This document shows, one piece after another, positions 2,900 to 26,337 of a stretch of DNA of 64,000 nt. The notes below the pieces were generated by a model, which had not been told where the DNA came from, did not search any database, and saw only the letters and a list, made by a program, of their open reading frames with translations. The stretch spans positions 3,096 through 67,095 of the forward strand of contig JBBRPA010000013.1 in assembly GCA_038228695.1 (NCBI GenBank), given 5' to 3'. A program made the position numbers and the translations under genes. Positions within the stretch are counted from its first letter, which is position 1. Every line of letters starts with the position of its first letter. Source of the stretch: Chthoniobacterales bacterium (lineage in GTDB: Bacteria > Verrucomicrobiota > Verrucomicrobiia > Chthoniobacterales > DASVRZ01).

Positions 2900-3619
2900 T
2901 TAGCTTACGGTTTCGCGATTTGCGTTGAGGAAGGTGAGGGCCAGTTGTGCCAGAGCGATGTCGCATGAATAAGTGATCTTAAAATTGAAATCCCGGGCGG
3001 TAATCAATTTCACCCGATCACCAAGTTTTGCAACCGCCGAAACTTCGTCCGTGACCGCCTCGCCCGTGGCGGAAATTTTCGCATAAGCTTCCCGAAGTCG
3101 TTCGACCGGAAAGACTTGCGGCGTTTGCATCGCCCACAGCCCCGCACGATCCACCGCCTCCGTGACGAATGATCCAGCATCGGCCCGTTTCAACGTGTCC
3201 GCCACCGGCACGGCCAAGCTGGCAGAACCTCCCATTTCCGTTGCAGCCAACACCGCCATCAAATCCCGAGGCGACAAGAGCGGCCGGGCCGCATCATGAA
3301 CCGCTACCCGGGTCATCGCGGGATCGACCAGTGCCAACCCCTCCGCGACGGAGGTATGACGTTCGGGGCCGCCCGCCACGACGTGGGTTAGCTTGGTCAA
3401 ACGGGCTGTCCCGGCGGTAAAATCCGCGAGGTTTTCCTGGGAGGCAACGAGGATGATTTGCCTAATCTCGGGGCAATTCTCGAACGTCTGCAAACAGTGT
3501 AAATAGACCGGCAACCCGCCCAGATCGGCCCGTAACTTGTCGAACCCCATCCGCTGACTGCTCCCACCAGCGACGACAATGACCGCAACCGACGGCTGCG
3601 CTTCGGCAGGAACTCCCAT
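2900..3619 (-). CDS. ispD: 2-C-methyl-D-erythritol 4-phosphate cytidylyltransferase
   Basis: VAVIVVAGGSSQRMGFDKL N-terminal nucleotide-binding motif; 239 aa; IspD-like throughout. Confidence 0.9.
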   Translation of the reverse strand: MGVPAEAQPSVAVIVVAGGSSQRMGFDKLRADLGGLPVYLHCLQTFENCPEIRQIILVASQENLADFTAGTARLTKLTHVVAGGPERHTSVAEGLALVDPAMTRVAVHDAARPLLSPRDLMAVLAATEMGGSASLAVPVADTLKRADAGSFVTEAVDRAGLWAMQTPQVFPVERLREAYAKISATGEAVTDEVSAVAKLGDRVKLITARDFNFKITYSCDIALAQLALTFLNANRETVS

Positions 3620-4424: not shown

Positions 4425-4943
4425 GTGCCGCCTTTTGGTTCGCCTTTCTGGCATTCTTCCTGCGCAACGGCAGCCCATGTCGAAACGTTCAGGCGTCATG
4501 CTCATTGTGGTGGGATTGCTGGCTTGGTCGTATTTTGCCCGGCCGGTCTATTCCTGACGACCGCCCTCGAACCGCGTATCCGCTGCGCCGTGGTCTCCGC
4601 TTATTTCAGCGATCGCGACACGGTCTTGAATGACCACGAAATCGATTTTCTCGACTGGCGCTTCCCGTATTCCACTTCCGTCTTGCGGGATGAAAACATC
4701 GCGGCGTTGATTTGTCCGCGACCACTTCAAATTCAATCTGGCACGCAGGATCAACTTTTTCCCGCCGCCGGGGGACGCGAAACCGCGGCCAAAACAGGGA
4801 ACCTTTACGACAAACTTGGGGTCAAAACGAACTTCTCCTATTACGAATTCACCGGCCGCCATGATTTCGAGGGCACCGCCGCGTGGAGTTTCCTCGAACA
4901 GCATTTCGCTCCACAGGAAATTGGCGGAGGGAGTGGGATTTGA
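4425..4943 (+). CDS. Alpha/beta hydrolase (dienelactone-hydrolase-like) C-terminal fragment, probably truncated
   Basis: AHCGG nucleophile-elbow-like motif, TALEPRIRCAVVS, and a C-terminal FTGRHDF (His) region. Only ~50 nt separate it from the divergent gene, so the N-terminal ~100+ aa of the fold are missing. The 3' end runs 22 nt into tRNA-Ser. Confidence 0.45.
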   Translation: MPPFGSPFWHSSCATAAHVETFRRHAHCGGIAGLVVFCPAGLFLTTALEPRIRCAVVSAYFSDRDTVLNDHEIDFLDWRFPYSTSVLRDENIAALICPRPLQIQSGTQDQLFPAAGGRETAAKTGNLYDKLGVKTNFSYYEFTGRHDFEGTAAWSFLEQHFAPQEIGGGSGI

Positions 4944-8356: not shown

Positions 8357-8920
8357 ATGGAACTCGTTCTCGCCTCCACCTCACCACGAAGAATCGACCT
8401 CCTCACCGCGATGGGGAGACCCTTCCGCGTCGTCGCCCCCGGCTGTGAGGAAAGTGTCGCCGGCCATTTTACGCCCCGCGAACTCTCCCTCCTCAACGCC
8501 AAACGCAAATCCCACGCCGTCGCTGCGTTTGCCCCCACCGCAATCGTCATCGGCGCCGACACCGTCGTTGCGCTCGACGGCGAATGCATCGGCAAACCCG
8601 CCGACCTGGACGAAGCCCGCCGAATGCTCCGCAAACTCAGCGGCCGCACGCATCAGGTCGTCACCAGCGTTTGGATTTCGCGCCTCCATCCGTTTCACAT
8701 GGCCGCCTTCACGGAAATCAGCGACGTCACTTTTCGCCCCTTAAGTGCGCGCGAAATCGACGAGTATTTGAAAAAAATCGACCCGCTCGACAAGGCCGGT
8801 GGCTATGCCGCGCAGGAGTTTCGCGATGAGATCATTTCGTCAATCGACGGCGCGCTCAGCAATGTCATCGGCCTGCCCACCGAGGCGCTTGAACCAGCAC
8901 TCGAGAATTTTTACGACTGA
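8357..8920 (+). CDS. maf: Maf-like nucleoside triphosphate pyrophosphatase
   Basis: LVLASTSPRRIDLL, IGADTVV, GGYAAQE motifs; 187 aa. Confidence 0.9.
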   Translation: MELVLASTSPRRIDLLTAMGRPFRVVAPGCEESVAGHFTPRELSLLNAKRKSHAVAAFAPTAIVIGADTVVALDGECIGKPADLDEARRMLRKLSGRTHQVVTSVWISRLHPFHMAAFTEISDVTFRPLSAREIDEYLKKIDPLDKAGGYAAQEFRDEIISSIDGALSNVIGLPTEALEPALENFYD

Positions 8921-8926
8921 ACCTCG

Positions 8927-9781
8927 TTGGAACGGAAAATCCTCATTGTCGGCTGCGGCTACATCGGTCGCGAAGTCGCCCGCTTCTTCCACGATTCCGG
9001 TTGGTTAGTTAGCGCCTGGACGAGTTCGCCCGCCTCCGCCGCGCGCGAAGCCGAGTCTGGTTTCCGGGTTTCCGCCGTGGACATTCGCGATGCGGAACTC
9101 GTCCGCCGCATCGGGGAACGGGACGGCCCCTTCGATTGGGTAGTGAACTGCGTTAGCTCGGGCGGCGGCGATGCGGAACGCTACCGCGAAATCTATCTGA
9201 ACGGCACTACTAACATTCTCCGTTCCCTCGTTTTCGGCCGGATCCTTTACACGAGCAGCACCTCCGTTTACGGACAAACCGACGGCAGCGAAGTCACCGA
9301 AGAAAGCCCGACGGAAACCTCCACCGCCACCGGGCGAATCCTGCGCGAGACCGAAGAGTTGGTCCTCGCCCGAGGCGGCATCGTCACCCGACTAGCTGGC
9401 ATTTACGGTCCTAGCCGCGGCGCGATGCTGCGGCGTTTCCAAGCTGGCGAATCCACTCTCGATGGCGACGGCGAACGCTGGCTGAACACGATCCATCGCG
9501 ATGACGCCGTAGCCGCCATCGCCGACCTCATTTCAACCGAATCCGCGACCGGACTCTACAACGTGGCCGACAACGGCGGCATCACCCAGCTAGCGGCCTT
9601 CAAATTCCTCGCCAAAAAACTCAAGCGTCCCCTCCCGCCATCCGTCCCGCCGAATCCGGCACGCAAACGCGGCTTTTCCAACAAACAAGTTTCCAACGCT
9701 AAATTGCGCCATCTCGGCTGGACCGCACAATTCCCCACTTTCCTCGACGGTCTCTCCGCTCCACTCTCGCATGCTGAATAA
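8927..9781 (+). CDS. NAD(P)-binding epimerase/dehydratase-like (SDR superfamily) protein
   Basis: ILIVGCGYIGREVA Rossmann GxGxxG at the N-terminus; TTG start; 284 aa. Confidence 0.75.
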   Translation: MERKILIVGCGYIGREVARFFHDSGWLVSAWTSSPASAAREAESGFRVSAVDIRDAELVRRIGERDGPFDWVVNCVSSGGGDAERYREIYLNGTTNILRSLVFGRILYTSSTSVYGQTDGSEVTEESPTETSTATGRILRETEELVLARGGIVTRLAGIYGPSRGAMLRRFQAGESTLDGDGERWLNTIHRDDAVAAIADLISTESATGLYNVADNGGITQLAAFKFLAKKLKRPLPPSVPPNPARKRGFSNKQVSNAKLRHLGWTAQFPTFLDGLSAPLSHAE

Positions 9782-10616
9782 TACATCTTAGTGCCGCTCG
9801 CAGATCTTCCACACTTCCCTCGCACATCAAAGAACCTCCCAATCGGGGGTTGATCTCAAAAACGACGATTTTCCCTTGGGCATCTAACAGAAAATCGAAA
9901 TTGCACGGTCCTGAAAATTCTAACGGCTGTAAAAATGTTTCTAGCTCACTAACAAACGACGACGGCATTTCAACGCGTTTGGGAAATTTGGCCGTGATTG
10001 ATCTCCGAATCACTCGTGCCTCTTCATGTTCGTAAACATAGACGCAGTGCCACAAAACCCGACCCTTTTTACAAACGCAATACGCCGCATATTGCCGCAA
10101 CGAAGGAATAAATCTCTGCACAATATATGGCGCCCGAACAAATATTTTTCGCGCCAATACTTCCTTGGCCTCTTCGAGTGACAAGACAATTTCAATCCCG
10201 TTTCCTGCGTTTAAATTCGTCCGTTTTATAACGCAGGGAAAACTGGCCTCTTCGATGGAGCGAAATATTTCCGGAGAACGATCCTCGCAGCCGATCGAAC
10301 GCACGTAATCCGCAAAGACCGCCTTATCCCGCAACGTTTTCAACGCCTTATCACTCGGAGCCAATGTCCTAAAATCACCCGGGCGCGACGCGATATGATC
10401 CTCCATTAACGGAATCACCACCGTCCGCATTTTACGATTTTTCCTAGCAGGTATTTCGTTCGCTTTCTGAACCTGCAACACCTCCCCAACCTCGGATGTT
10501 TTTTCCCAAACCGCCGCCTCGGGAGCCAGTGCGCGCATCCACTCGCGGCTATGCGCCCCAAAAATCACCACACGAACCCTCCGTTTTCGAAAAAGTCCGC
10601 GTAACCACAACAACAT
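9699..10616 (-). CDS. ATP-grasp domain protein (orphan)
   Basis: C-terminal VFEINPRLGGS ATP-grasp signature; 305 aa. The gene body is ~40-47% GC (hand count on 60-nt samples) against ~60% in the flanks. Confidence 0.7.
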   Translation of the reverse strand: MLLWLRGLFRKRRVRVVIFGAHSREWMRALAPEAAVWEKTSEVGEVLQVQKANEIPARKNRKMRTVVIPLMEDHIASRPGDFRTLAPSDKALKTLRDKAVFADYVRSIGCEDRSPEIFRSIEEASFPCVIKRTNLNAGNGIEIVLSLEEAKEVLARKIFVRAPYIVQRFIPSLRQYAAYCVCKKGRVLWHCVYVYEHEEARVIRRSITAKFPKRVEMPSSFVSELETFLQPLEFSGPCNFDFLLDAQGKIVVFEINPRLGGSLMCEGSVEDLRAALRCIIQHARVERRDRRGKWGIVRSSRDGAI

Positions 10617-15879: not shown

Positions 15880-17925
15880 ATGGCGCGCCTTTATCCCAAC
15901 CAGCTTGTCGGAGTCGTTTCGCCGGAAAATGCGAAGGTCTTCGGGGCTTTGCGACGGTTGCCCGGTGACCAGACGCACATTTGGCGGGCGCTCACCGCAG
16001 GCGATCCGTGGCGGCCCGATTGGATGATTCTGCATCAGGAACGGGTGTGCTTTCTCGTCGCTGTCTCCCAACAAAGTTTACCGGGCGATCTCTTCGGCTC
16101 GCAACCCTCTGAAGCTCCCGGCGCGATCGAGACCCAGCGGCTAAACACTTTTTTTGAAAACCTGACCGCCGACGCGGCCTATCTCAACAAACCGCTCCGT
16201 CCTCCGATCTTTGGCGTGGTGATTTTCCCCAACATTCCGCACGAATATTTCGATCAATTTCCCCCGAACCCCGATGTCGCCCTTTGGGGCCGGGAGATGC
16301 TGTATCCCTCCTTTATCGAGGAAGCTCTGGAAAAAACCGGCAGCGACGGTGTTTTCCCGACCGTCTGGCTCGACCTTTTGCGCCACAAGATTTGCCCCGA
16401 ATCCCAAATTCCGCGCGACCTGACCGTGACCCCGAAACGTCCCCAACGGCGCGATCTCGCTCCGCGTCACACCCGGCAGTTGCTCGATCTCGACCAAGAA
16501 CATCTCGTCAAAACCGACTTGTTGATGAACGACGATGCCAGCAACGTCACGCGCTCCGGGAACCTCCGCCTCGTCACCGGCGTCGCGGGCAGCGGCAAAT
16601 CGCTCGTCCTGCTCTACCGCGCCCGACTCCAGGCCACCCTTTGCAACGAGGCCCGCATCCTGACCCTTTCCCACAACCGCCCGATCACCTTCGAATTGCA
16701 ATCGCGCCAAGAGCGAATCATGCCCGGCACATGGCTCCGCTGGCAGACGTTTTACCAGTGGTGCCACAGCCTGCTCCCGCAAACCGAAAAAATCTTGTCC
16801 GACTGGGAGCGCAAACCCTGGATTCAGGAACTGGCCGCCTTGCATCCCACCATCGCCAAACTTCCCGCCGAATTTCTCGTCGATGAACTCGATTGGATTC
16901 GGGAGCAAGCTTTCAGCGCGGAGACGTCCTATCTGATCGCCGCCCGCCGAGGCCGACACCGTCCGCTCAATCTCGACCAACGCAAAGCCATGCTCGAGTT
17001 GCTCGCCGAATATCGCCATAAACTGGCCGCCACGGAGCATTGCGACTGGACGAGTGTCCCCGAAAATGTCTGGCACGCCCTCCGCGGCGGACGCATTCAG
17101 AGCGAGGCTTACGATCATATTTTCATCGATGAAGCGCAATTTTTTCCGCCGCTCTGGTTCAAGGTGATCCTGCATTTTCAGAAACCAGCGCACGGAACGA
17201 TCTTCCTCGCGGCGGACCCGACCCAAGGTTTCCTGCGGCATCGCACCTCGTGGCGGGATTGCGGCATCGAAGTTCGAGGACATTCCGCACGGCTGAAAAA
17301 AGGTTACCGAAATTGCCGCGAAATCCTCGCTTTTGCCTCCGCATTTTTCCGCCGCCGCCTGCCGGATCATGACGCCGACAATAATCTGCCGAACGATTTT
17401 GATCTGCAAGGGCTGCCGATTGGCCTGCCCCCGGAATTCATTCACGTCCATCATCAACAGGATGAACTAACCTGCGTGACGCATCAGGTTCTCGAGACGA
17501 TTCGCCATGGGCAGACGCCCGCGAGCCTGCTCGTGCTTTTCAAATCCGGCACGGCGGTAACGGAATGCGTGGAGCGGCTCAACGATCTGCACGGAAGTCC
17601 GATCGCCTGGAATGCAAAGGAACCGGGGCAGCCTCGTCAGCCGATGGTCCGCGTTTCGACCTTAAATGCCGCCACCGGACTCGAGAGCCAGATGGTCTTT
17701 CTTTGCGGACTCGACAGTTTGCTGGAGGAGGAGCACCGACTCGGCCTCGAAGAAAGCGAGAAAGACGAGATCATCCGAAGCAACACCCGGAAAATTTACA
17801 TGGCTCTGACCCGGGCCAGTCGGCAGGTTTACCTTGTTTACCGACACCCAAGCACGCGGGAGTTGCTGGAGGGTCTGCCCATGGAGAAAACCGCCTCGCA
17901 ACTCCTCCGCCTCGCCGCCGCGTAA
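15880..17925 (+). CDS. SF1 (UvrD-like) helicase with NERD-like N-terminal region
   Basis: Walker A LVTGVAGSGKSL, motif II IFIDEAQFF, LAADPTQG, YRNCREI, STLNAATGLESQMVFLCG, IYMALTRASRQVYLV. The N-terminal ~200 aa carry a PDWMIL..FLVAVS pattern resembling a NERD/PD-(D/E)xK core. Confidence 0.75.
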   Translation: MARLYPNQLVGVVSPENAKVFGALRRLPGDQTHIWRALTAGDPWRPDWMILHQERVCFLVAVSQQSLPGDLFGSQPSEAPGAIETQRLNTFFENLTADAAYLNKPLRPPIFGVVIFPNIPHEYFDQFPPNPDVALWGREMLYPSFIEEALEKTGSDGVFPTVWLDLLRHKICPESQIPRDLTVTPKRPQRRDLAPRHTRQLLDLDQEHLVKTDLLMNDDASNVTRSGNLRLVTGVAGSGKSLVLLYRARLQATLCNEARILTLSHNRPITFELQSRQERIMPGTWLRWQTFYQWCHSLLPQTEKILSDWERKPWIQELAALHPTIAKLPAEFLVDELDWIREQAFSAETSYLIAARRGRHRPLNLDQRKAMLELLAEYRHKLAATEHCDWTSVPENVWHALRGGRIQSEAYDHIFIDEAQFFPPLWFKVILHFQKPAHGTIFLAADPTQGFLRHRTSWRDCGIEVRGHSARLKKGYRNCREILAFASAFFRRRLPDHDADNNLPNDFDLQGLPIGLPPEFIHVHHQQDELTCVTHQVLETIRHGQTPASLLVLFKSGTAVTECVERLNDLHGSPIAWNAKEPGQPRQPMVRVSTLNAATGLESQMVFLCGLDSLLEEEHRLGLEESEKDEIIRSNTRKIYMALTRASRQVYLVYRHPSTRELLEGLPMEKTASQLLRLAAA

Positions 17926-18065: not shown

Positions 18066-20243
18066 ATGGCGCGTCCCTCTTCCTTTGGATCCTCTCACGA
18101 TAAATCCTCCGCCAATCTCTCCCAATTCGAAACCGATCTCTGGTCTGCTGCTGATAATCTTCGGGCCAACTCCAAGCTGACCTCCAGCGATTACTTTATG
18201 CCCGTGTTGGGCATTATCTTTTTGCGGCACGCGGCCAACCGCTTTGATGCCGCCTCCGTGCAGATCGCCGCTGACCAAGCATCAGGCACCATGCCCAAAC
18301 GCAAAATCCTGCCTGCCGACTACATCCGTCGCCGAGCGCTTTTCCTGCCGGAAGCCGCCCGTTACGACACCATCATGGCCAAGGCCACTAGCGACCCCGG
18401 CGGGCTGCCCACGCTTGTCACCGAGGCGATGACCGCCATCGAGCAGGACTTTGAGCCGCTGCTGAACGTGCTTCCCAAAGACTACGGCATCTTTGAGCCG
18501 AAGGTGCTGGAGGAGTTGATGCGTCTCTTTAATAGCGAGCAGATCAAACATGCCACGGGCGATGTTTTCGGCCGCATCTACGAATATTTCCTCGCCAAGT
18601 TCTCCATCCAAAAAGCGCACGACAACGGCGAATTCTTCACGCCCTCGTCGATCGTGCAACTCATCGTCAACGTCATCGAGCCAAACCACGGCAAGGTGCT
18701 GGATCCCGCTTGTGGTTCCGGCGGCATGTTCGTCCAGTCCAGCCACTTCATCGAGCAGGAGGGCGGCGACACCACGAGAAAAGTCGTCTTCTACGGGCAG
18801 GAAAAAAACGGCGACACCATCCGCATCGCGAAGATGAACCTCGCCGTCCACGGACTGGAGGGGAAGATCGCCGAGGCCATCACCTACTACCAGGACGAGC
18901 ACAACCTCGCCGGTCACGAAAAGCTCGCTCCAGGAGAGTGCGACTTCGTCATGGCCAATCCGCCGTTCAACGTCGATCTCGTCGATGCTGAGCGGATCAA
19001 GACCGACGCGCGCCTGCCCTTCGGCCTGCCAGGCGTGAACAAGGACAAGCGCGTCTCCAACGGCAACTACCTCTGGATCTCCTATTTCTGGAGCTACCTC
19101 AATGCGACTGGCCGCGCCGGGTTCGTCATGTCCTCCCAGGCCTCCAGCGCGGGCAATGATGAAAAAACCGTGCGCCAGAAGCTGGTCGAGACCGGCGACG
19201 TGGACGTGATGATCTCCATCAAGGGCGGCTTCTTCTACACCCGCACCGTGCCCTGTGAGCTTTGGCACTTCGACCGCGCCAAGCCCGCTGAGCGCAAGGA
19301 TCAGGTGCTCATGCTCGATGCCCGCAGCGTCGGCCAGCTCATGAAAGGTTCTCGCAAGGTTCACGAGTTCACGCCGGAGCAGATGCGCAACCTCACCGCC
19401 ATCGTCTGGCTCTACCGGGGCCAGCAGGAGCGCTTCCTCGCGCTGGTGCAGGATTACTTTGAAAAACACGCCGCCGAGTGCGCCGCAGTACCGGAAAAAC
19501 TCAGCGCCTTCGACACCGCGTTGACCGCTCTGGATGCTCCCTTTGCCGCCCTCGCCAAGACGGTGGAAGCCACGCCCGATCTCGATAAGGGCAAAGTGCA
19601 GGCACTTACCGACACCCTGGCCGAACTGCGCGACGCGCGGAAAGCCTGCGCCACCGATGCCCAGACCCTGCTCGCGGACCTCGCCGCCTCCGTGAAGGCT
19701 TTGCAAAAATCCTCGCCTGCCACCAACGCCGCCCAGCACAAGGCCCGGCAAAGCTTCGATCCCGCCGCCGACCGCGCCAAGGGCCTGATCAAGCAGGTGG
19801 ATCTGCTCTACAAACTCGCCAGCCGCGCCGCGACTAGCGGTGCCGACCTCGCAGCCGCTGAAGCTGTCTCTGCGGTCTATGACCGGCGCTCGACCAGCCG
19901 CTTCATCAAGCAGCTCGACGAAGCACGCCGCGCCGCCGTGGAGAAGCTCAAGCACGCCACGTATTTCCACCGCCAGATCGGCTGGTTGCAGGATCGCTTC
20001 CCAAAGGCGGCGATGCAGCCCGTGCCCGGACTGTGCAAGGTCGTCACGCGGAGCGAAATCGCCACTGCCGACTGGAGTCTAACTCCCGGTCGCTATGTCG
20101 GCGTTGCCCCGGCGGAAGTGGACGAGGATTTCGATTTCGAGCAGGCCATCACCGAGATTCACGAGGAACTCGCCGGGCTGAACAGCGAAGCGGCGGAGCT
20201 GGCTGCGACGATTGAGAAGAACTTGGAGGAGCTGGGGATATGA
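18066..20243 (+). CDS. hsdM: Type I restriction-modification system methyltransferase subunit
   Basis: GEFFTPSSIV, DPACGSGGMF (SAM motif I), ANPPFN (motif IV); 725 aa. The 3' end overlaps the hsdS start (ATGA). Confidence 0.92.
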   Translation: MARPSSFGSSHDKSSANLSQFETDLWSAADNLRANSKLTSSDYFMPVLGIIFLRHAANRFDAASVQIAADQASGTMPKRKILPADYIRRRALFLPEAARYDTIMAKATSDPGGLPTLVTEAMTAIEQDFEPLLNVLPKDYGIFEPKVLEELMRLFNSEQIKHATGDVFGRIYEYFLAKFSIQKAHDNGEFFTPSSIVQLIVNVIEPNHGKVLDPACGSGGMFVQSSHFIEQEGGDTTRKVVFYGQEKNGDTIRIAKMNLAVHGLEGKIAEAITYYQDEHNLAGHEKLAPGECDFVMANPPFNVDLVDAERIKTDARLPFGLPGVNKDKRVSNGNYLWISYFWSYLNATGRAGFVMSSQASSAGNDEKTVRQKLVETGDVDVMISIKGGFFYTRTVPCELWHFDRAKPAERKDQVLMLDARSVGQLMKGSRKVHEFTPEQMRNLTAIVWLYRGQQERFLALVQDYFEKHAAECAAVPEKLSAFDTALTALDAPFAALAKTVEATPDLDKGKVQALTDTLAELRDARKACATDAQTLLADLAASVKALQKSSPATNAAQHKARQSFDPAADRAKGLIKQVDLLYKLASRAATSGADLAAAEAVSAVYDRRSTSRFIKQLDEARRAAVEKLKHATYFHRQIGWLQDRFPKAAMQPVPGLCKVVTRSEIATADWSLTPGRYVGVAPAEVDEDFDFEQAITEIHEELAGLNSEAAELAATIEKNLEELGI

Positions 20244-21385
20244 TCGCAACGCTTCGATCCCGCAGTTGGCGAGATGCCAAACTAGAAGAGCTAGTGTTCT
20301 TCCAGCGTGGTTTTGACATTACGAAAGCTCAGCAGCGGGACGGAGAGTATCCAGTAATTTCCTCCTCTGGCGTAGCGAGCTACCACGATGAATTTAAGGC
20401 GTCAGGCCCTGGGGTCGTAATCGGACGGAAAGGGACATTGGGAGCGATTCATTTCGCGCCGAGTGACTACTGGCCACACGACACGACGCTTTGGAGCAAG
20501 GACCTTCGTGGAAATAATCCGAGCTTCGTCTTCTATTATCTACACACACTCAACTTGGAGCGATTCGATGTTGGCAGCTCCAACCCAACACTGAATCGAA
20601 ATCATATCCACGACCTGCCAATCAGGCTCCCGTCCCGCAGCATTCAAGACCGCATCGCCGCGATCCTCACCGCCTACGACGAGCAGATGGAGAACAACCG
20701 GCGGCGGATGGGACTGTTGGAGCGGGCGGCGCGCTTGCTGTATGAGGAATGGTTCGTCCGCCTCCGCTTCCCCGGCCACGAACACACCCCCATCCACCAA
20801 GGCATCCCCAAGGGTTGGGGGAGGAAACGGCTTGACGCCCTCGCAGATGTAAACCGAGCTTCGCTTTCCGGTGGCCACGACGGCGAGATTGAATACGTGG
20901 ACATCTCGGCCGTCGGGCCCGGAGAAATCACCGAGACGAAGATTCTTGAGTTTCGAGATGCTCCCAGCCGAGCCCGTCGCATCGTTCAGCATGGGGACAT
21001 AATCTGGTCGTGTGTGAGGCCCAATCGTCGTTCACATGCAGTCATCTGGAATCCGCCAGAGAACCTCATCGTCTCGACTGGCTTCGCAGTTCTGACGCCG
21101 ACGAACGCGCCGACCAGTTTCGTTTACTTCGCCACTTCGACCGATGACTTTGTTGGCTACTTGGAAAATCATGCGAAGGGAGCGGCGTATCCGGCAGTCG
21201 TTTCCGGTGATTTTGAGCGCGCATCAGTGCTCGTTCCTAATAAGTCGCTCGTGAAAGCTTTCGATGAGGTTGCGGCACCCACATTCTCGCAAATCCACAA
21301 CCTCCAAAACCAAAACCAAAAACTCCGCGCCGCCCGCGACCTGCTGCTGCCACGGTTGATGAGCGGAGAGATTGAAGTCGTTTAA
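20240..21385 (+). CDS. hsdS: Type I restriction-modification system specificity subunit
   Basis: Two target-recognition halves are separated by the conserved helix RIAAILTAYDEQMENNRRRMGLLERAARLLYEEWFVRLRFPG. The C-terminal helix is LQNQNQKLRAARDLLLPRLMSGEIEV. Confidence 0.88.
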   Translation: MIATLRSRSWRDAKLEELVFFQRGFDITKAQQRDGEYPVISSSGVASYHDEFKASGPGVVIGRKGTLGAIHFAPSDYWPHDTTLWSKDLRGNNPSFVFYYLHTLNLERFDVGSSNPTLNRNHIHDLPIRLPSRSIQDRIAAILTAYDEQMENNRRRMGLLERAARLLYEEWFVRLRFPGHEHTPIHQGIPKGWGRKRLDALADVNRASLSGGHDGEIEYVDISAVGPGEITETKILEFRDAPSRARRIVQHGDIIWSCVRPNRRSHAVIWNPPENLIVSTGFAVLTPTNAPTSFVYFATSTDDFVGYLENHAKGAAYPAVVSGDFERASVLVPNKSLVKAFDEVAAPTFSQIHNLQNQNQKLRAARDLLLPRLMSGEIEVV

Positions 21386-21476
21386 AACCGCCCCGAAATT
21401 CCAGAAATGACCTTAAAATTGCATTTTAGTTAAAATACACTTTGCTTATTTGCTCTTTTTTATTCACTTTTCGTCC

Positions 21477-22919
21477 ATGCTGAGCACGAAATCAGACCTC
21501 TTGGGTGTCTTGCGTCAGTTCAACCCGTGGTGGCGTGGCGAGCGCCAGAGTGGCTTGCCCGACTGGAAACGGGCAGCGTTTGGTGAAGTGAAGCAGTGGG
21601 TGCAAAATCCACCCGCGCCGCGTGCCGTGCTACTGAGCGGAGCGCGGCAGATCGGCAAGACCACTTTGCTGCTCCAGACCATCGAGAGTCTGCTGGAAGA
21701 GGGCGTGCCGCCGGGACAGATTCTGTATGCGACCTTCGACCATCCTCTGCTCAAGCTGGCAGGTCTGGATGGGTTAATGGATCTGTGGAGGGAAGTGGAG
21801 CCGGCGCAAGCGGGGCCGGAATACGTGTTTCTGGATGAAATCCAATACACCAAGGACTGGCAAACCTGGCTCAAGCATCAGGTGGATTTTCAAAAACAAC
21901 GTCGCATTGCGGTGACGGGGTCGGCCACGCCACTGGTGACCGAAGGGCAGGAAAGTGGCACCGGACGGTGGCACACGGTGCGTCTGGCGACGCTTTCGTT
22001 TTACGAATACCTGCAAATAAAAAAAGTGGCGGCGCCTGATTTGCCCGAAGTCGGATCGCTGCAAAAACTGCGGTCCTGGAGCGCGGCGGATTTCGGACGC
22101 ACGGCCGCGGCGGCGAAGCCATTGACGGGACATTTTCATGATTATCTGCTGCGCGGCGGCTTCCCGCAGTGTGCGCTGGTGGATGGCGTGGTAGCGGCGC
22201 AAAAACTCTTGCGCGAGGACATCGTGGACAAGGTGCTCAAACGCGACATGACCGCACTCTACGGTGTGCGGCGGGTGCTGGAATTGGAGCAGACCTTTCT
22301 CTACCTGTGCCTCCATGACGGCGGACTTCTCGACATGACGGAACTGGGAAAAAATCTCCAAGTGAAAAAACCGACCGCTACCAACTACATCACACTGCTG
22401 GAAGCGGCGCACCTCATCCACCGGCTGCCGCCCTTCGGCTACGGAAAGGAAATTCTACGCGGTCGATCCAAAGTCTATCTAGCAGATGCCGCCATCGCTC
22501 CAAGCGTGCTGTTGAAAGGGAAGTCGATGTTAGAAGACTCGGTGGCGATGGGAGCGGCGGTGGAGACGGCGTTTTTCAAACACGTCTTCACGCGCTATTA
22601 CCAACAGAGTGTGGGCTTCTCCTACTGGCGCGGCAAAAAAGACCAGGAGGTGGACATCATCGCCGAGGTGGAAGGACGACTGGTGCCCTTCGAAGTCAAA
22701 TACCGGAACCAAGCCACGGGTTGGGCGGAACTAAAAGGCATGGTGGAATTCTGCCGCGAGCGAAAGGTGTCGCTTGGTTACGTGGTGACGAAGGAGTCCG
22801 AAGACTTTGGGATCATGGAACGGGAGATGGAGCCCGGCGTCATGCTCCAGTTGGTTAAAATCCCAGCACCGCTGGCGTGTTATTGGTTGGGAAAAACAGA
22901 AATCACCGCACAATCTTAG
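21477..22919 (+). CDS. AAA+ ATPase with C-terminal PD-(D/E)xK-like domain (COG1373 / AAA_14 + DUF4143-type)
   Basis: Walker A LLSGARQIGKTTLL, Walker B YVFLDEIQ, C-terminal EVDIIAEVEGRLVPFEVKY (D...ExK). Preceded by a 90-bp AT-rich spacer. Its stop lies 8 nt before the hsdR ATG. Confidence 0.85.
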   Translation: MLSTKSDLLGVLRQFNPWWRGERQSGLPDWKRAAFGEVKQWVQNPPAPRAVLLSGARQIGKTTLLLQTIESLLEEGVPPGQILYATFDHPLLKLAGLDGLMDLWREVEPAQAGPEYVFLDEIQYTKDWQTWLKHQVDFQKQRRIAVTGSATPLVTEGQESGTGRWHTVRLATLSFYEYLQIKKVAAPDLPEVGSLQKLRSWSAADFGRTAAAAKPLTGHFHDYLLRGGFPQCALVDGVVAAQKLLREDIVDKVLKRDMTALYGVRRVLELEQTFLYLCLHDGGLLDMTELGKNLQVKKPTATNYITLLEAAHLIHRLPPFGYGKEILRGRSKVYLADAAIAPSVLLKGKSMLEDSVAMGAAVETAFFKHVFTRYYQQSVGFSYWRGKKDQEVDIIAEVEGRLVPFEVKYRNQATGWAELKGMVEFCRERKVSLGYVVTKESEDFGIMEREMEPGVMLQLVKIPAPLACYWLGKTEITAQS

Positions 22920-22926
22920 CAAGACC

Positions 22927-25900
22927 ATGATCACTGACATCAACAGCGAAGACCGCTTGGTGCAGACGACATTCGCGCGCCACTTGGAGGACGTGCTCGG
23001 CTGGGATAGCGTCTATGCCCACAACGAGGAAACCTTTGGGCCGAATGGAACCTTGGGCCGTGCCACTGAGCGCGATGTGATGCTAGTGCGCGACCTGCGA
23101 GCCGCGGTGCAACGCCTTAATCCTAACCTGCCCGAATCCGTCCGCGAGCAGGCGGTCGAGAAAATGACGCGGGTGGACTTCGCCCGCTCGCTTATTCAGC
23201 AAAACAAGGAATTCCACGACTTCATCCGCAACGGAGTTCCAGTCGAATGGCGCGACGCCGCTGGTCAGACTCGCCACGCCCGGGCGCGAGTGATGGATTT
23301 TCGCCATGCGGACAACAACCGATTCCTAGCGGTGCGCGAACTAAAGATCCAAGGGCTGCGTGTGCCACACTACAACCGCCGCGCCGACGTTGTGTGCTTC
23401 GTCAACGGATTGCCTCTGGTCTTCATCGAACTCAAGGCGGTCTATCTAAACATGCGGGCCGGCTTCGACAACAACCTCACCGACTACCTGAGCGAGACGA
23501 GCATTAACCATGCTTTCCACCACAACGCATTTCTGATTGTTAGCAACGGGAATCACGCCCGCTACGGATCGATCACCAGTAAGTGGGAGCATTTCGCGGA
23601 ATGGAAGCGAAACGACGAGAAAGAAAAAGGCAATGTGGACGCCGAGGTGCTACTCGACGGAATGTTAGCTAAGAATCGCCTCGTGGACTTGGTGGAAAAT
23701 TTCATTTTATTTGACGACAGTCGTCCCGGCGGCACACGGAAGATCGTTGCCAGGAATCATCAGGTGCTCGGGGTCAACGAGGCCGTCGCCTCCGTGGTGC
23801 GGCAGGAGGAATTGAAACTGGCATTTCCGGCCAACAAACGCATCATCCGCTACATCGCGCAGGAAACCATTTTGGACCGGGTCGCTGAGGAACCTCCGCC
23901 GGAATCGCAGGAGGCCAAGGACCGCCTCAGACTGTTGGACGCTCCCGATGAACTGCCTCTGGTGCAACGCGCCCACCCCGACCTCGGACGGCTCGGCGTT
24001 TTTTGGCACACCCAGGGCAGCGGCAAGTCCTACTCGATGGTTATGTTTACGGAAAAAGTCCGGAGGCATGTGCCTGGCAATCACACCTTTGTCATCATGA
24101 CCGATCGCGAGGATCTCGATGATCAAATCTGGCGGACGTTCACCGGTTGCGGAATGGTGGAACCCAAGACGACGCCTCGTGCCGGTTCCGGACGGGAACT
24201 TAAGGCGGCCCTGCAAGGGAACCACAGCTTCGTCTTCACGCTCATCCATAAGTTCAACCAACCCGTTGATGAAAAAGATCCCTACAGCGAGCGCGACGAC
24301 ATTATTGTCATCTCCGACGAGGCGCACCGGACGCAGGCGGGAAAGTTCGCCCGAAACATGCGGCTGGCGTTGCCAAATGCATCGTTCCTCGGCTTCACCG
24401 GCACTCCGCTTTTCAAATACGATCATCTCACGAAGCGAATATTCGGCGGTTACATTTCGCAATATGACTTCAAGCGGTCGGAGGAAGACAATAGCACGGT
24501 GAAGTTAGTTTATGAGAATCGCGGCGAGAAACTCGGCGTTGCCCGGCTAGATTTGAATGATCGCATCGCTGAGAAAATCGACCAAGCCGGATTGGACGCC
24601 GAACAAGAGGCTTTGTTAGAAAAACTGCTGGGGCAGGACTACGAAGTCGTCACGGCCCGAGACCGCCTCAACAAAGTGGCGGTGGACTTTGTGGATCACT
24701 GCGCTGCCCGTTGGGAGTGCGGTAAATCCCTGCTGGTATGCATCGACAAGATTACTTGTGGCAGAATGTGGAAACGCGTGAAGCGACTGTGGAAACGCAA
24801 ACAAGCCATCGTCGTTGCGGAGATCGCTCGAAAGGAAATCGCGCTTAAGTCAATGCTAGACCTAGATCAGCGAGAAACGGCAGTAAACGAGCTTGACTGG
24901 CTAAAGCAGCAAGCGGCGTGGATGGAAAACACCATCATCGAAATCATTATCAGCGAAGCACAAAACGAGGTGCGCGATTTTGCTAAGTGGGGAATCAATA
25001 TCGTCCCGCGTCGCATGGTGATGAAGAACGGCTTCGAGACGGAAGACGGCAAACGACTGAACGTGGAGGACGCCTTCAAGAACGACCAGCACCCGTTTCG
25101 TATCGCCATCGTTTGCGCCATGTGGCTGACCGGATTCGATGTCGAGTGTCTGCAAACACTCTATATCGACAAGCCGCTGAAAGCCCACACGCTCATGCAG
25201 GCGATTGCTCGCGCAAACCGCATTTACCCCGGCAAGGATTGTGGCGTGATTGTGGACTACAACGGAATGCTCAAGAGTCTGCGTTCGGCTCTGGCCCAAT
25301 ACGCGGTAGGAGATGGGGCCGACGAACAGCCCGACCCGGCCATTCCTTTGGAAAAGTATGTGCCCGGCCTCGTCGAGGCCATTGAGGAGGCCGAAAGCCA
25401 TTTGATCGGCTTGGGGTTTGATCCCGAACGGCTGGTCGGCGCCACGGGATTTGCCAAGATTGCAGCGTTGCGGGATGCCGTCGATGCGCTCTACACGTCG
25501 GATAAGGATAAGCGGCGCTATCAGATTGCAGCTCGGGAAGTCTTTTCCCGAATGAAGACTTTAATGCTAGAGCCTTCGGTTCGGCCCTATTACATCCGTC
25601 ACGATAATATCGAAGCCATCTACAAAAAACTGGATGAGCGCCGCGACACGGCAGATGTCACCGATGTTTTGAAAGAACTGCACAATATCGTCAACGAAGC
25701 GATTCGTTCCCAATCACCCGGAAAAGACCAAGCTGAGGGACTAAAGGTTGACCTCAGCCAAATCGATTTCGAGAAGCTGCAGGAGGAATTTGCGAAAAAA
25801 GTTAAGCGGAAGCGAAAGGCATTGCAGGACATTCGGGATATGGTCGAAGAAAAATTGGCGAGGATGCTCGCTGCCAACCCGATGCGGATGGACTTCTACA

Positions 25901-26337
25901 AGAAGTATCAGGAGATCATCGCGGACTATAACCGGGAAAAGGACCGCGCCACCGTGGAAGAAACTTTTGCCAGAGTCATGAAACTCGTGGCGGAAATGGA
26001 CTACGAAACGCAACGGCATGTCCGCGAAGGATTGACTGAGGAAGAGCTAGCGTTCTTCGATCTTCTAACAAAGGAAAACATATCGAAGGCTGACCGGGAG
26101 CGCGTGAAGCAAGCTAGTAAAGGGCTTCTAGCCACACTCCAAAAGCAGTTGGCCTCGATGCCGGCATGGACCCAAAACGCGACGACGCAGGCCGACGTGA
26201 AAGTGCTCATCCTCGATACGCTCTACCAGTCGTTGCCGCGCCCGCCATTCACCGATGAAGAAGCCGATGCGTTGGCTGAGAAGCTCTACGGTTTCGTATG
26301 GCAACAAAGCGGGCAGGGGCAACTCATCGCGGCGTGA
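22927..26337 (+). CDS. hsdR: Type I restriction endonuclease subunit R
   Basis: N-terminal nuclease ADVVCFVNGLPLVFIELK, helicase motif I HTQGSGKS, motif II ISDEAHRTQ, long C-terminal HsdR tail. Starts at MITDINSEDRLVQ rather than the track start at 22807. Confidence 0.92.
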   Translation: MITDINSEDRLVQTTFARHLEDVLGWDSVYAHNEETFGPNGTLGRATERDVMLVRDLRAAVQRLNPNLPESVREQAVEKMTRVDFARSLIQQNKEFHDFIRNGVPVEWRDAAGQTRHARARVMDFRHADNNRFLAVRELKIQGLRVPHYNRRADVVCFVNGLPLVFIELKAVYLNMRAGFDNNLTDYLSETSINHAFHHNAFLIVSNGNHARYGSITSKWEHFAEWKRNDEKEKGNVDAEVLLDGMLAKNRLVDLVENFILFDDSRPGGTRKIVARNHQVLGVNEAVASVVRQEELKLAFPANKRIIRYIAQETILDRVAEEPPPESQEAKDRLRLLDAPDELPLVQRAHPDLGRLGVFWHTQGSGKSYSMVMFTEKVRRHVPGNHTFVIMTDREDLDDQIWRTFTGCGMVEPKTTPRAGSGRELKAALQGNHSFVFTLIHKFNQPVDEKDPYSERDDIIVISDEAHRTQAGKFARNMRLALPNASFLGFTGTPLFKYDHLTKRIFGGYISQYDFKRSEEDNSTVKLVYENRGEKLGVARLDLNDRIAEKIDQAGLDAEQEALLEKLLGQDYEVVTARDRLNKVAVDFVDHCAARWECGKSLLVCIDKITCGRMWKRVKRLWKRKQAIVVAEIARKEIALKSMLDLDQRETAVNELDWLKQQAAWMENTIIEIIISEAQNEVRDFAKWGINIVPRRMVMKNGFETEDGKRLNVEDAFKNDQHPFRIAIVCAMWLTGFDVECLQTLYIDKPLKAHTLMQAIARANRIYPGKDCGVIVDYNGMLKSLRSALAQYAVGDGADEQPDPAIPLEKYVPGLVEAIEEAESHLIGLGFDPERLVGATGFAKIAALRDAVDALYTSDKDKRRYQIAAREVFSRMKTLMLEPSVRPYYIRHDNIEAIYKKLDERRDTADVTDVLKELHNIVNEAIRSQSPGKDQAEGLKVDLSQIDFEKLQEEFAKKVKRKRKALQDIRDMVEEKLARMLAANPMRMDFYKKYQEIIADYNREKDRATVEETFARVMKLVAEMDYETQRHVREGLTEEELAFFDLLTKENISKADRERVKQASKGLLATLQKQLASMPAWTQNATTQADVKVLILDTLYQSLPRPPFTDEEADALAEKLYGFVWQQSGQGQLIAA

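Follow-up and report, generated by a model that had tools for sequence, protein, structure and literature searches.

A predicted ATPase-nuclease gene of the PDC-S01 family, with a portable leader, in the hsdS-hsdR junction of a Chthoniobacterales Type I restriction-modification locus

PrrC of Escherichia coli (prr locus, EcoprrI) combines an ABC/Rad50-type NTPase with a tRNA-Lys anticodon nuclease domain. According to Payne, Hughes, Fineran and Jackson, PrrC is nearly always embedded in Type I restriction-modification (R-M) systems, and these authors used "guilt-by-embedding", that is, the nesting of genes in BREX, DISARM and Type I R-M systems, to derive 145 phage defence candidates, one of which is PDC-S01 (bioRxiv 10.1101/2024.01.29.577857). 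PDC-S01, an ATPase fused to a PD-(D/E)xK domain, is reported to come fourth in frequency among the predicted defences of prokaryotes (PMC12988326) and to be the most frequent single locus in rumen genomes (PMC13356809). Here we describe a member of this family that is encoded between hsdS and hsdR of a Type I R-M locus in a 64,000-nucleotide stretch of DNA (the window) from Chthoniobacterales bacterium (Verrucomicrobiota; assembly GCA_038228695.1, contig JBBRPA010000013.1, forward-strand positions 3,096 to 67,095). The window itself is present in a single DNA sediment metagenome.

The DUF4143/COG1373 domain is counted among the PD-(D/E)xK families of unknown function (Steczkiewicz et al., PMC3424549), and an AAA_14+DUF4143 gene of Thermus thermophilus, TT_P0211, is 6.6-fold up-regulated when plasmid DNA is present (PMC4406477). 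No mechanistic study of PDC-S01 or of AAA_14+DUF4143 proteins was found in the searchable literature, as had been stated in an earlier reading of the window (hereafter, the original prediction). The embedding argument put forward there is a rediscovery, because PDC-S01 was defined by that same published logic.

A PDC-S01-family gene in a generic cargo slot

We consider it probable that the gene is an autonomous PDC-S01 cassette lodged in a generic cargo slot, most likely with a role in defence, and not an effector guarded by the R-M system; of its family identity and its autonomy we are highly confident. The genes of the R-M locus are as follows.

18066 to 20243, plus strand: hsdM, Type I methyltransferase, 725 aa (Pfam, PADLOC, NCBIfam)
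20240 to 21385, plus strand: hsdS, specificity subunit, 381 aa, stop codon at 21383-21385, left border of the cargo slot (Pfam, PADLOC, NCBIfam)
21477 (ATG) to 22919 (TAG), plus strand: PDC-S01-family gene, 480 aa, with AAA_14 ATPase, lid, winged helix and PD-(D/E)xK nuclease (open reading frame (ORF) call)
22927 to 26337, plus strand: hsdR, restriction subunit, 1136 aa, right border of the cargo slot (Pfam, PADLOC, NCBIfam)

HsdM, HsdS and HsdR are complete, bona fide Type I subunits by all three resources, with HsdR scoring 441 bits against TIGR00348 (cut-off 284). A longer ATPase ORF from an alternative TTG start at 21450 is mechanically possible; the ATG at 21477 was preferred because homologues start at ATG and the upstream DNA is conserved as non-coding. 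The ATPase stop codon is separated from the hsdR ATG (22927) by 7 nt, so that the close packing noted originally stands but the spacing of 8 nt given for it was off by one.

The gene belongs to PDC-S01 (AAA_14 plus DUF4143, COG1373). Hidden Markov model searches recovered the architecture that had been proposed for it at scores well above the gathering thresholds, with Pfam AAA_14 at residues 49-179 (3.2e-29, 102 bits, cut-off 27) and DUF4143 at residues 255-410 (5.3e-34, 117.7 bits, cut-off 28.1); AAA_16 completes the Pfam domain set, and weak matches to MarR (residues 271-318) and UPF0102 (residues 384-415) fall within DUF4143. The PADLOC model PDLC04787 (PDC-S01) matches at 1.7e-50, aligning residues 48-443 with profile positions 27-390 of 412. 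Six other PDC-S01 models also match, and the only further PADLOC matches at E<=0.01 are two marginal ones, to Csa3 and mad8. The defence association that the original prediction named for this architecture corresponds to PADLOC PDC-S01. Homologues are numerous (4260 at E<=1e-5 among the candidates scored, and 7918 cluster representatives at E<=1e-3), and the gene joins a catalogued, uncharacterised family of defence candidates.

One genome per species was scanned for orthologues, which yielded 80 proteins at 62-96% identity, each from a different species, of Verrucomicrobiota, Planctomycetota, Acidobacteriota, Beta- and Gammaproteobacteria, Geobacter, Ignavibacteriae and others. Aromatoleum evansii KB740, Nitrosomonas nitrosa Nm90 and Pseudacidovorax intermedius DSM 21352 are among the carriers. 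The orthologous group is characterised by a length of about 481 aa and by 62-97% identity across phyla. Each 20-kb orthologue locus was searched with the HsdM, HsdS and HsdR of the window. The hsdS-X-hsdR arrangement was found in three of the 80 (L003, L005 and L006; 85-88% identity, Verrucomicrobiales), and two further loci merely flank Type I genes, with X directly upstream of a different hsdM...hsdR in L026 and an hsdR-like gene upstream of X in L017. In the other 75 loci, Type I genes are absent within 10 kb of the orthologue. When the five genes on each side were clustered, no neighbour proved to be conserved across the 80 loci, and no integrase, transposase or origin was found consistently alongside the orthologues. 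The commonest of the 148 immediate neighbours are Type III methyltransferases (4-5), Type I components (3), DUF4400 (3), JetA (2), SoFic (2) and PIN (2), giving the neighbourhood a dilute defence and mobile-element flavour. A relative with 93% identity lies in an island with Mrr, HipA, WYL and SIR2 genes.

The nearest orthologue (L001, 96% amino acid identity) is intact. Just upstream of its leader, a reading frame at 4590-4690 of that locus joins 15 codons from the hsdM N-terminal region in frame to the final 16 codons of hsdS (YFIPVLGIIFLRHAA joined to SDLLLSRLMSGEIEVG and closed by a stop codon), and hsdR is absent downstream; the ATPase gene has outlived the deletion of the R-M system at this locus. 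It differs from that of the window by 132 synonymous and only 23 nonsynonymous codons and is under purifying selection. In L004 (86%) the gene lies between a glycosidase gene and menaquinone-pathway genes, next to a scar of the hsdS 3' end, and in L002 (94%) it is surrounded by housekeeping genes and no scar is present. The contexts of L002 and of the window are unrelated, and the two are similar in nucleotide sequence from 21391 to 22915, which identifies the moving unit as spacer plus ORF. The gene is a self-contained cassette consisting of leader and ORF, at about 21391-22919.

The R-M side was surveyed in 80 metagenomic loci (L081-L160) whose HsdR proteins are 68-81% identical to that of the window. 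Both borders of the junction, the hsdS 3' end and the hsdR 5' end, could be read in 59 of these loci. In ten of the 59, the gap is under 100 nt, with hsdS and hsdR 12-20 nt apart and no cargo, while in the remaining 49 (83%) the two genes are separated by inserts of 0.1-5.3 kb, mostly in the same orientation. The identified cargo of the hsdS-hsdR junction includes the following.

AbiEi/AbiEii: 11 loci
PDC-M19 (DUF488): 7 loci
GmrSD: 6 loci
Zeta toxin: 4 loci
AAA_15/OLD-TOPRIM (AriA/GajA-like): 3 loci
SMODS with S_4TM effector (CBASS components), Piwi with SIR2 (pAgo), AIPR, and HipA: 1 locus each

No relative of the ATPase was detected by tblastn (1e-5) in any of the 80 loci. The survey of Type I loci that had been suggested for the frequency of this gene between hsdS and hsdR therefore returned none in 80, with other cargo in 49 of the 59 readable junctions. 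Even the loci with the most similar HsdR (L081-L083, 77-80%) hold different cargo or none, so that cargo turnover is faster than divergence of the R-M genes. In that Type I family, the junction serves as a generic slot whose content, unrelated defence genes, changes rapidly; 83% of the readable junctions are occupied, and at least nine cargo types are represented. The last ~60 nt of hsdS are ~91% identical in L003 and L006 even where the remainder of hsdS cannot be aligned, and they persist as a scar in L001 and L004. We infer that the hsdS 3' end and the hsdR 5' end could serve as anchors for cargo exchange by homologous recombination.

In L006, an extra ~1.15 kb (8850-10000) with a minus-strand ORF (9367-9792) lies between hsdS and the ATPase leader, which indicates that the slot is able to hold more than one insert.

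The original prediction had read the location of the gene as a possible sign of a PrrC-like second-line effector of abortive infection, held latent by the Type I R-M proteins and freed when a phage inhibits restriction. The position itself was seen correctly: the window copy does occupy the place that PrrC takes in the prr locus, the slot is common to three orthologues, the gene is tightly packed against hsdR (7 nt), and PrrC is almost exclusively embedded in Type I systems (Payne et al., bioRxiv 10.1101/2024.01.29.577857). However, Type I genes are missing from the vicinity (10 kb) of 75 of the 80 orthologues, unrelated autonomous systems fill the same slot in 49 of 59 related loci, the gene carries its own portable putative promoter and leader, and the protein has no domain in common with PrrC and no match to a PrrC model in PADLOC. 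The intact, selected copy in L001 adjoins a deleted R-M locus, which argues against a need for R-M proteins to keep it harmless. The guarded-effector proposal is not supported by this comparison, and we regard it as very unlikely. The position of the gene in the slot is good circumstantial evidence for a defence role, not for a PrrC-type dependence on R-M.

The R-M genes and the cassette form part of a five-gene island, flanked on both sides by housekeeping-type ORFs, whose remaining member lies directly upstream of hsdM.

15880 to 17925, plus strand: NERD/UvrD-like helicase gene, 681 aa (PADLOC C3a187 at 5.5e-28, weaker GajB matches)

The helicase gene may be a further defence gene of the island; tblastn found no counterpart of it in any of 160 related loci. 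No second copy of the ATPase gene is present within the window, and a search of 15-27 kb for transposon-marking repeats around the cassette gave only short matches at chance level. A 19-nt near-repeat, AAAACCGCCYCGMAAYTCC, occurs in two copies that are 84% identical, one at the end of the helicase gene (17887-17905) and one after the hsdS stop codon at the left edge of the cassette (21384-21402); this pair could be due to chance.

The leader, its dyad and the putative promoter

A conserved AT-rich leader is carried with the gene across phyla, an observation that is new in this analysis; no description of a portable leader with a dyad in PDC-S01 was found in the searchable literature. The leader and its elements in the window are listed below.

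21386 to 21476, plus strand: AT-rich leader, 91 nt, 33% G+C (window 57%), recognised by composition and by nucleotide similarity to orthologues
21425 to 21450, plus strand: 26-bp dyad TTTAGTTAAAATACACTTTGCTTATT, putative operator, recognised by weight matrix, fixed position and complementarity
21441 to 21446, plus strand: -35-like hexamer TTTGCT in the right arm of the dyad, inferred from the cross-locus consensus
21464 to 21470, plus strand: weak, putative -10-like box TCACTTT, from the cross-locus consensus

The AT-rich spacer of about 90 bp described in the original prediction is thereby borne out, and the conservation of the whole leader with the gene across phyla favours the putative promoter that was attributed to it. 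The ORF has no foreign-looking composition in G+C or skew, the dip being confined to the leader. No RNA family was detected by Rfam in 15-27 kb, so the leader is not a known riboswitch or small RNA.

The 140 nt upstream of all 81 start codons (window plus 80 orthologues) were aligned. A stretch from about -80 to -10 contains 60-77% A+T, as compared with ~42% further upstream, and conserved positions span about -92 to -1 (70 loci). Near -85 there is also a small second motif, gcCCC.aAAA. The dyad, with the consensus TTTA[AG][TG]TAAAGT[AG]TA[CG]TT[GT][AC][AC][TC]TAAA, keeps a fixed distance from the ATG (-52 to -27), its first position falling at -52 to -50 in 70 of the 81 loci, and in 77 of 81 its position weight matrix score exceeds those of all 810 shuffled controls; no second copy was found within the window. 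It is a near-perfect palindrome in many loci, for example, L049 (TTTAAGGTAAGTA followed directly by TACTTGCCTTAAA) and L017 (TAAGTCAAGT-ac-ACTTGACTTA). Positions 6 and 21 of the dyad are T and A in 45 loci and G and C in 26, making them complementary in 71 of 81 loci versus 40 expected under independence.

The right arm of the dyad contains a -35-like consensus, TTK.AC, at -36 to -31 (TTGACT in L017), which is separated by a 17-nt spacer from a -10-like box with the consensus TAAaaT. The pattern nAnnnT starts at -13 or -12 in 65 of 70 loci (TAnnnT in 45 of 70), and Shine-Dalgarno-like words occur in only 14 of the 70. This -35/-10 geometry predicts a transcript start at or beside the ATG and, with it, a leaderless mRNA, from which the rigid spacing of the leader across phyla would follow. 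The cassette would then supply its own sigma-70-type promoter and yield a leaderless or near-leaderless mRNA.

The winged-helix protein alone always accompanies the dyad, and binding by this protein is, for that reason, the most economical reading. A dimer of its winged helix would occupy the 26-bp dyad over the -35 box and repress the promoter of its own gene. Such use of the dyad as a self-operator is quite possible, and we entertain it without favouring it. Residue 298, which is K or R at the start of the recognition helix, tracks dyad position 21, which is C or A, with the highest normalised mutual information (0.91), and it does so in L016, L022, L042 and L060 as well, even though other clade-marker residues place these loci in the opposite clade.

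Three distant plasmid-borne members of the family have different upstream regions, namely a terminator with a short inverted repeat, a weak inverted repeat, and three direct repeats, which indicates that the dyad is specific to this orthologous group. The direct repeats, ACTTTCAATYGGTC, stand upstream in place of the dyad at 4830-4950 of L163 (Roseivivax plasmid pTHAF197b_b), where a restriction endonuclease gene and a Qat system come after the family member. It is a hint that upstream repeats of their own may be present in other subfamilies as well.

In the window, the hsdR start lies 7 nt past the ATPase stop codon and no terminator stands out, so that the cassette promoter would also feed hsdR, on top of read-through from hsdMS. 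A putative promoter directly upstream of hsdR without an intervening terminator, combined with a dyad operator and a winged helix that suggest regulation, would fit a controller of restriction, i.e. a DNA-binding ATPase that times hsdR expression in the manner of the C proteins of Type II systems and whose nuclease is secondary. However, there is no hsdR for such a controller to act on in most orthologue loci, hsdR expression in cargo-free relatives follows directly on hsdS across a gap of 12-20 nt, and the conserved ATPase and nuclease would be left unexplained. We consider such a role highly improbable.

Predicted structure and possible function

The Walker A, Walker B and D...ExK motifs quoted in the original prediction for the 480-aa ORF between hsdS and hsdR are all present. 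The motifs and domains of the protein map to the window as follows.

21639-21662, plus strand: Walker A GARQIGKT, G55-T62 (sequence motif)
21822-21839, plus strand: Walker B YVFLDE, Y116-E121 (sequence motif)
22653, 22692 and 22698, plus strand: D393, E406 and K408, respectively, of the nuclease motif EVD...FEVKY (sequence motif)
21621 to 21986, plus strand: AAA+ core, residues 49-170, including Walker A and B and an invariant flexible loop at 152-164 (Pfam, conservation, Foldseek)
22266 to 22481, plus strand: winged-helix DNA-binding domain, residues 264-335, recognition helix at ~298-310 (secondary structure of the model, weak MarR match)
22611 to 22865, plus strand: PD-(D/E)xK nuclease domain, residues 379-463 (invariant motif, weak UPF0102 match, C-terminal model, Foldseek)

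K61, D120, E121, D393, E406 and K408 are invariant in 60 orthologues, and on these 60 sequences an AlphaFold2 model of the full protein was built (predicted local distance difference test (pLDDT) 81.8, predicted template modelling score 0.83). The model consists of N-terminal helices bearing an invariant NPWW motif, the AAA+ core (49-170), a helical lid (195-262), the winged helix (264-335), two linker helices and the nuclease domain (379-463), which has an alpha/beta fold. According to this model, the protein joins an AAA+ ATPase that resembles Cdc6/Orc1, complete with lid and winged helix, to a PD-(D/E)xK nuclease at the C-terminus, and all catalytic residues are intact.

A Foldseek search of the PDB with the whole model retrieved Cdc6/Orc1 on origin DNA (2qby_A, 1.5e-7) and Apaf-1 (3sfz, 3.7e-7), as well as 8bob, 9jap, ORC4, RFC, RuvB, DnaA, MalT and Avs5, at the low whole-model TM-scores (0.2-0.35) that are expected for multi-domain proteins. 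With a separate model of residues 366-480 (pLDDT 83), all top matches were PD-(D/E)xK nucleases, including McrC (4e-4 and 7e-4), archaeal Hjc, AF1548, Bax1, the DdmD nuclease, EcoT38I and BamHI. The nuclease fold that had been proposed for the C-terminal domain is therefore also the one predicted here, at modest E-values. In a PDB sequence search, the only matches were designer pentatricopeptide repeats at 0.4-2 per stretch, with the E-value summed over repeats, and these were rejected as spurious.

The loop PLVTEGQESGTGR (residues 152-164; 21930-21968) is invariant in the 60 orthologues and is the sole segment of the model with pLDDT below 50; its G163 and R164 are also retained in most distant members. 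It could be an arginine finger or a loop that contacts DNA or a partner.

The likeliest function of the protein is that of an autonomous ATP-dependent DNA nuclease. Its winged helix would engage DNA, ATP would drive assembly or remodelling of an oligomer on that DNA, and the nuclease domains would then cut invading DNA in the fashion of McrBC, independently of the neighbouring R-M proteins. A role of the gene in defence is slightly favoured by us. Phage records contain few members of the family (9 metagenomic fragments), and plasmids that carry one number 148. ATP-dependent DNA cleavage as the effector step, for which McrBC is the analogy, is proposed only tentatively. A broader proposal, which we rate as rather unlikely in its entirety, is that PDC-S01 proteins are self-regulating, sequence-reading modules, in which the dyad would be the protein's own recognition site and would repress a leaderless promoter, and the same head would direct ATP-dependent cleavage of foreign DNA.

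Several observations weigh against these interpretations. No member of the PDC-S01 family has a demonstrated function, and in the only published test that was found, a cold-seep PDC-S01 gene assayed in E. coli B against T4, T5 and T7 was outside the four protective candidates (PMC12881386). Most of the 80 orthologue loci have no recognisable defence neighbour at +/-1, and the association with defence genes is moderate, not strong. As for the nuclease, 86 diverse full-length representatives (28-60% identity) keep the ATPase residues almost universally (K61 in 83 of 86, D120 in 86 and E121 in 81), whereas D393 is found in 74, E406 in 62 and K408 in 57, counts to which alignment error may contribute. 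Among distant representatives (P0121-P0270, aligned to window residues 393, 406 and 408), roughly 15-30% lack part of the triad, and because of this minority DNA cutting may not be the universal output of the family. With respect to the leader, the beta-proteobacterial variant of the dyad is weakly palindromic; the -10-like TCACTTT of the window is poor, and a generic promoter scan favours 21407-21436. Metatranscriptome contigs that cover the Nitrosomonas nitrosa orthologue pass through the upstream region or start uninformatively, so that no transcription start could be called. Finally, the covariation of residue 298 with the operator reflects about two independent events, with phylogeny as a confounder, and is to be taken as suggestive only.

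Some of the same observations would suit a non-defence factor for the selfish maintenance of mobile DNA, for example, an ORC/Cdc6-like ATPase engaged in replication, partition or addiction of islands and plasmids, which hitch-hikes in variable regions. The fold is that of a replication initiator, and the family is found on 148 plasmids, often beside insertion sequence elements and type IV secretion system or relaxase genes. One relative shares its island with genes of the excisionase-like and RepA/DnaB-like kinds, no protection was seen in the phage test in a heterologous host (PMC12881386), and the nuclease triad has been lost in some members. On the other side, there is no consistent integrase, transposase or origin companion, many copies stand alone among housekeeping genes, the slot-mates in the Type I family are nearly all known defence or toxin systems, and the triad is invariant within this orthologous group. 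On balance, we regard this alternative as unlikely, and an autonomous cassette with a probable role in defence remains our preferred interpretation.

This analysis adds a quantified cargo slot, a survivor that lacks its R-M system, and a portable, operator-like leader to what is known of the family. It provides a clean negative, in that Type I embedding here reflects a generic cargo slot and no PrrC-type partnership, together with a testable lead, namely the operator-like dyad and putative leaderless promoter that move with the gene. Should the dyad prove to be bound by the protein, a defined DNA ligand would be the first experimental handle on a highly abundant, uncharacterised defence candidate of bacteria and archaea. 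Current views are not overturned by these results; rather, the range of worthwhile experiments is narrowed.

Comparison with known systems

The best full-length structural matches of the protein are Cdc6/Orc1 and the STAND NTPases (Apaf-1, MalT and Avs), with which it shares the AAA+ base and the order of helical lid and winged helix. Relatedness to them at the sequence level was not seen in the PDB sequence search. In contrast to STAND proteins, the window protein has no TPR, WD40 or LRR sensor repeats by Pfam, and its nuclease is fused at the C-terminus.

McrBC combines an AAA+ NTPase with a PD-(D/E)xK nuclease, as does the window protein, whose C-terminal domain finds its best structural match in McrC. 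McrBC is therefore a plausible working analogy for NTP-driven DNA cleavage. The likeness is structural only (4e-4), with no Pfam or PADLOC match to McrB or McrC, and unlike McrBC, the window protein is a single polypeptide with a Cdc6/Orc1-like rather than McrB-like ATPase and shows no evidence of modification dependence.

PrrC resembles the window copy in its hsdS-hsdR position and in having an NTPase domain followed by a nuclease domain. The two differ in that the NTPase of the window protein is of the AAA+ type and its nuclease of the PD-(D/E)xK type, with no PrrC-type domains by Pfam or PADLOC, and in that PrrC is near-obligately embedded in R-M systems, whereas only 3 of 80 orthologues of the window gene are embedded and 2 of 80 adjacent.

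The closest relative is PDC-S01 itself, which shares with the window gene the architecture, a near full-length profile match and the logic of discovery by embedding in Type I systems. Nothing excludes the gene from that family, to which its orthologous group adds a portable leader with a dyad.

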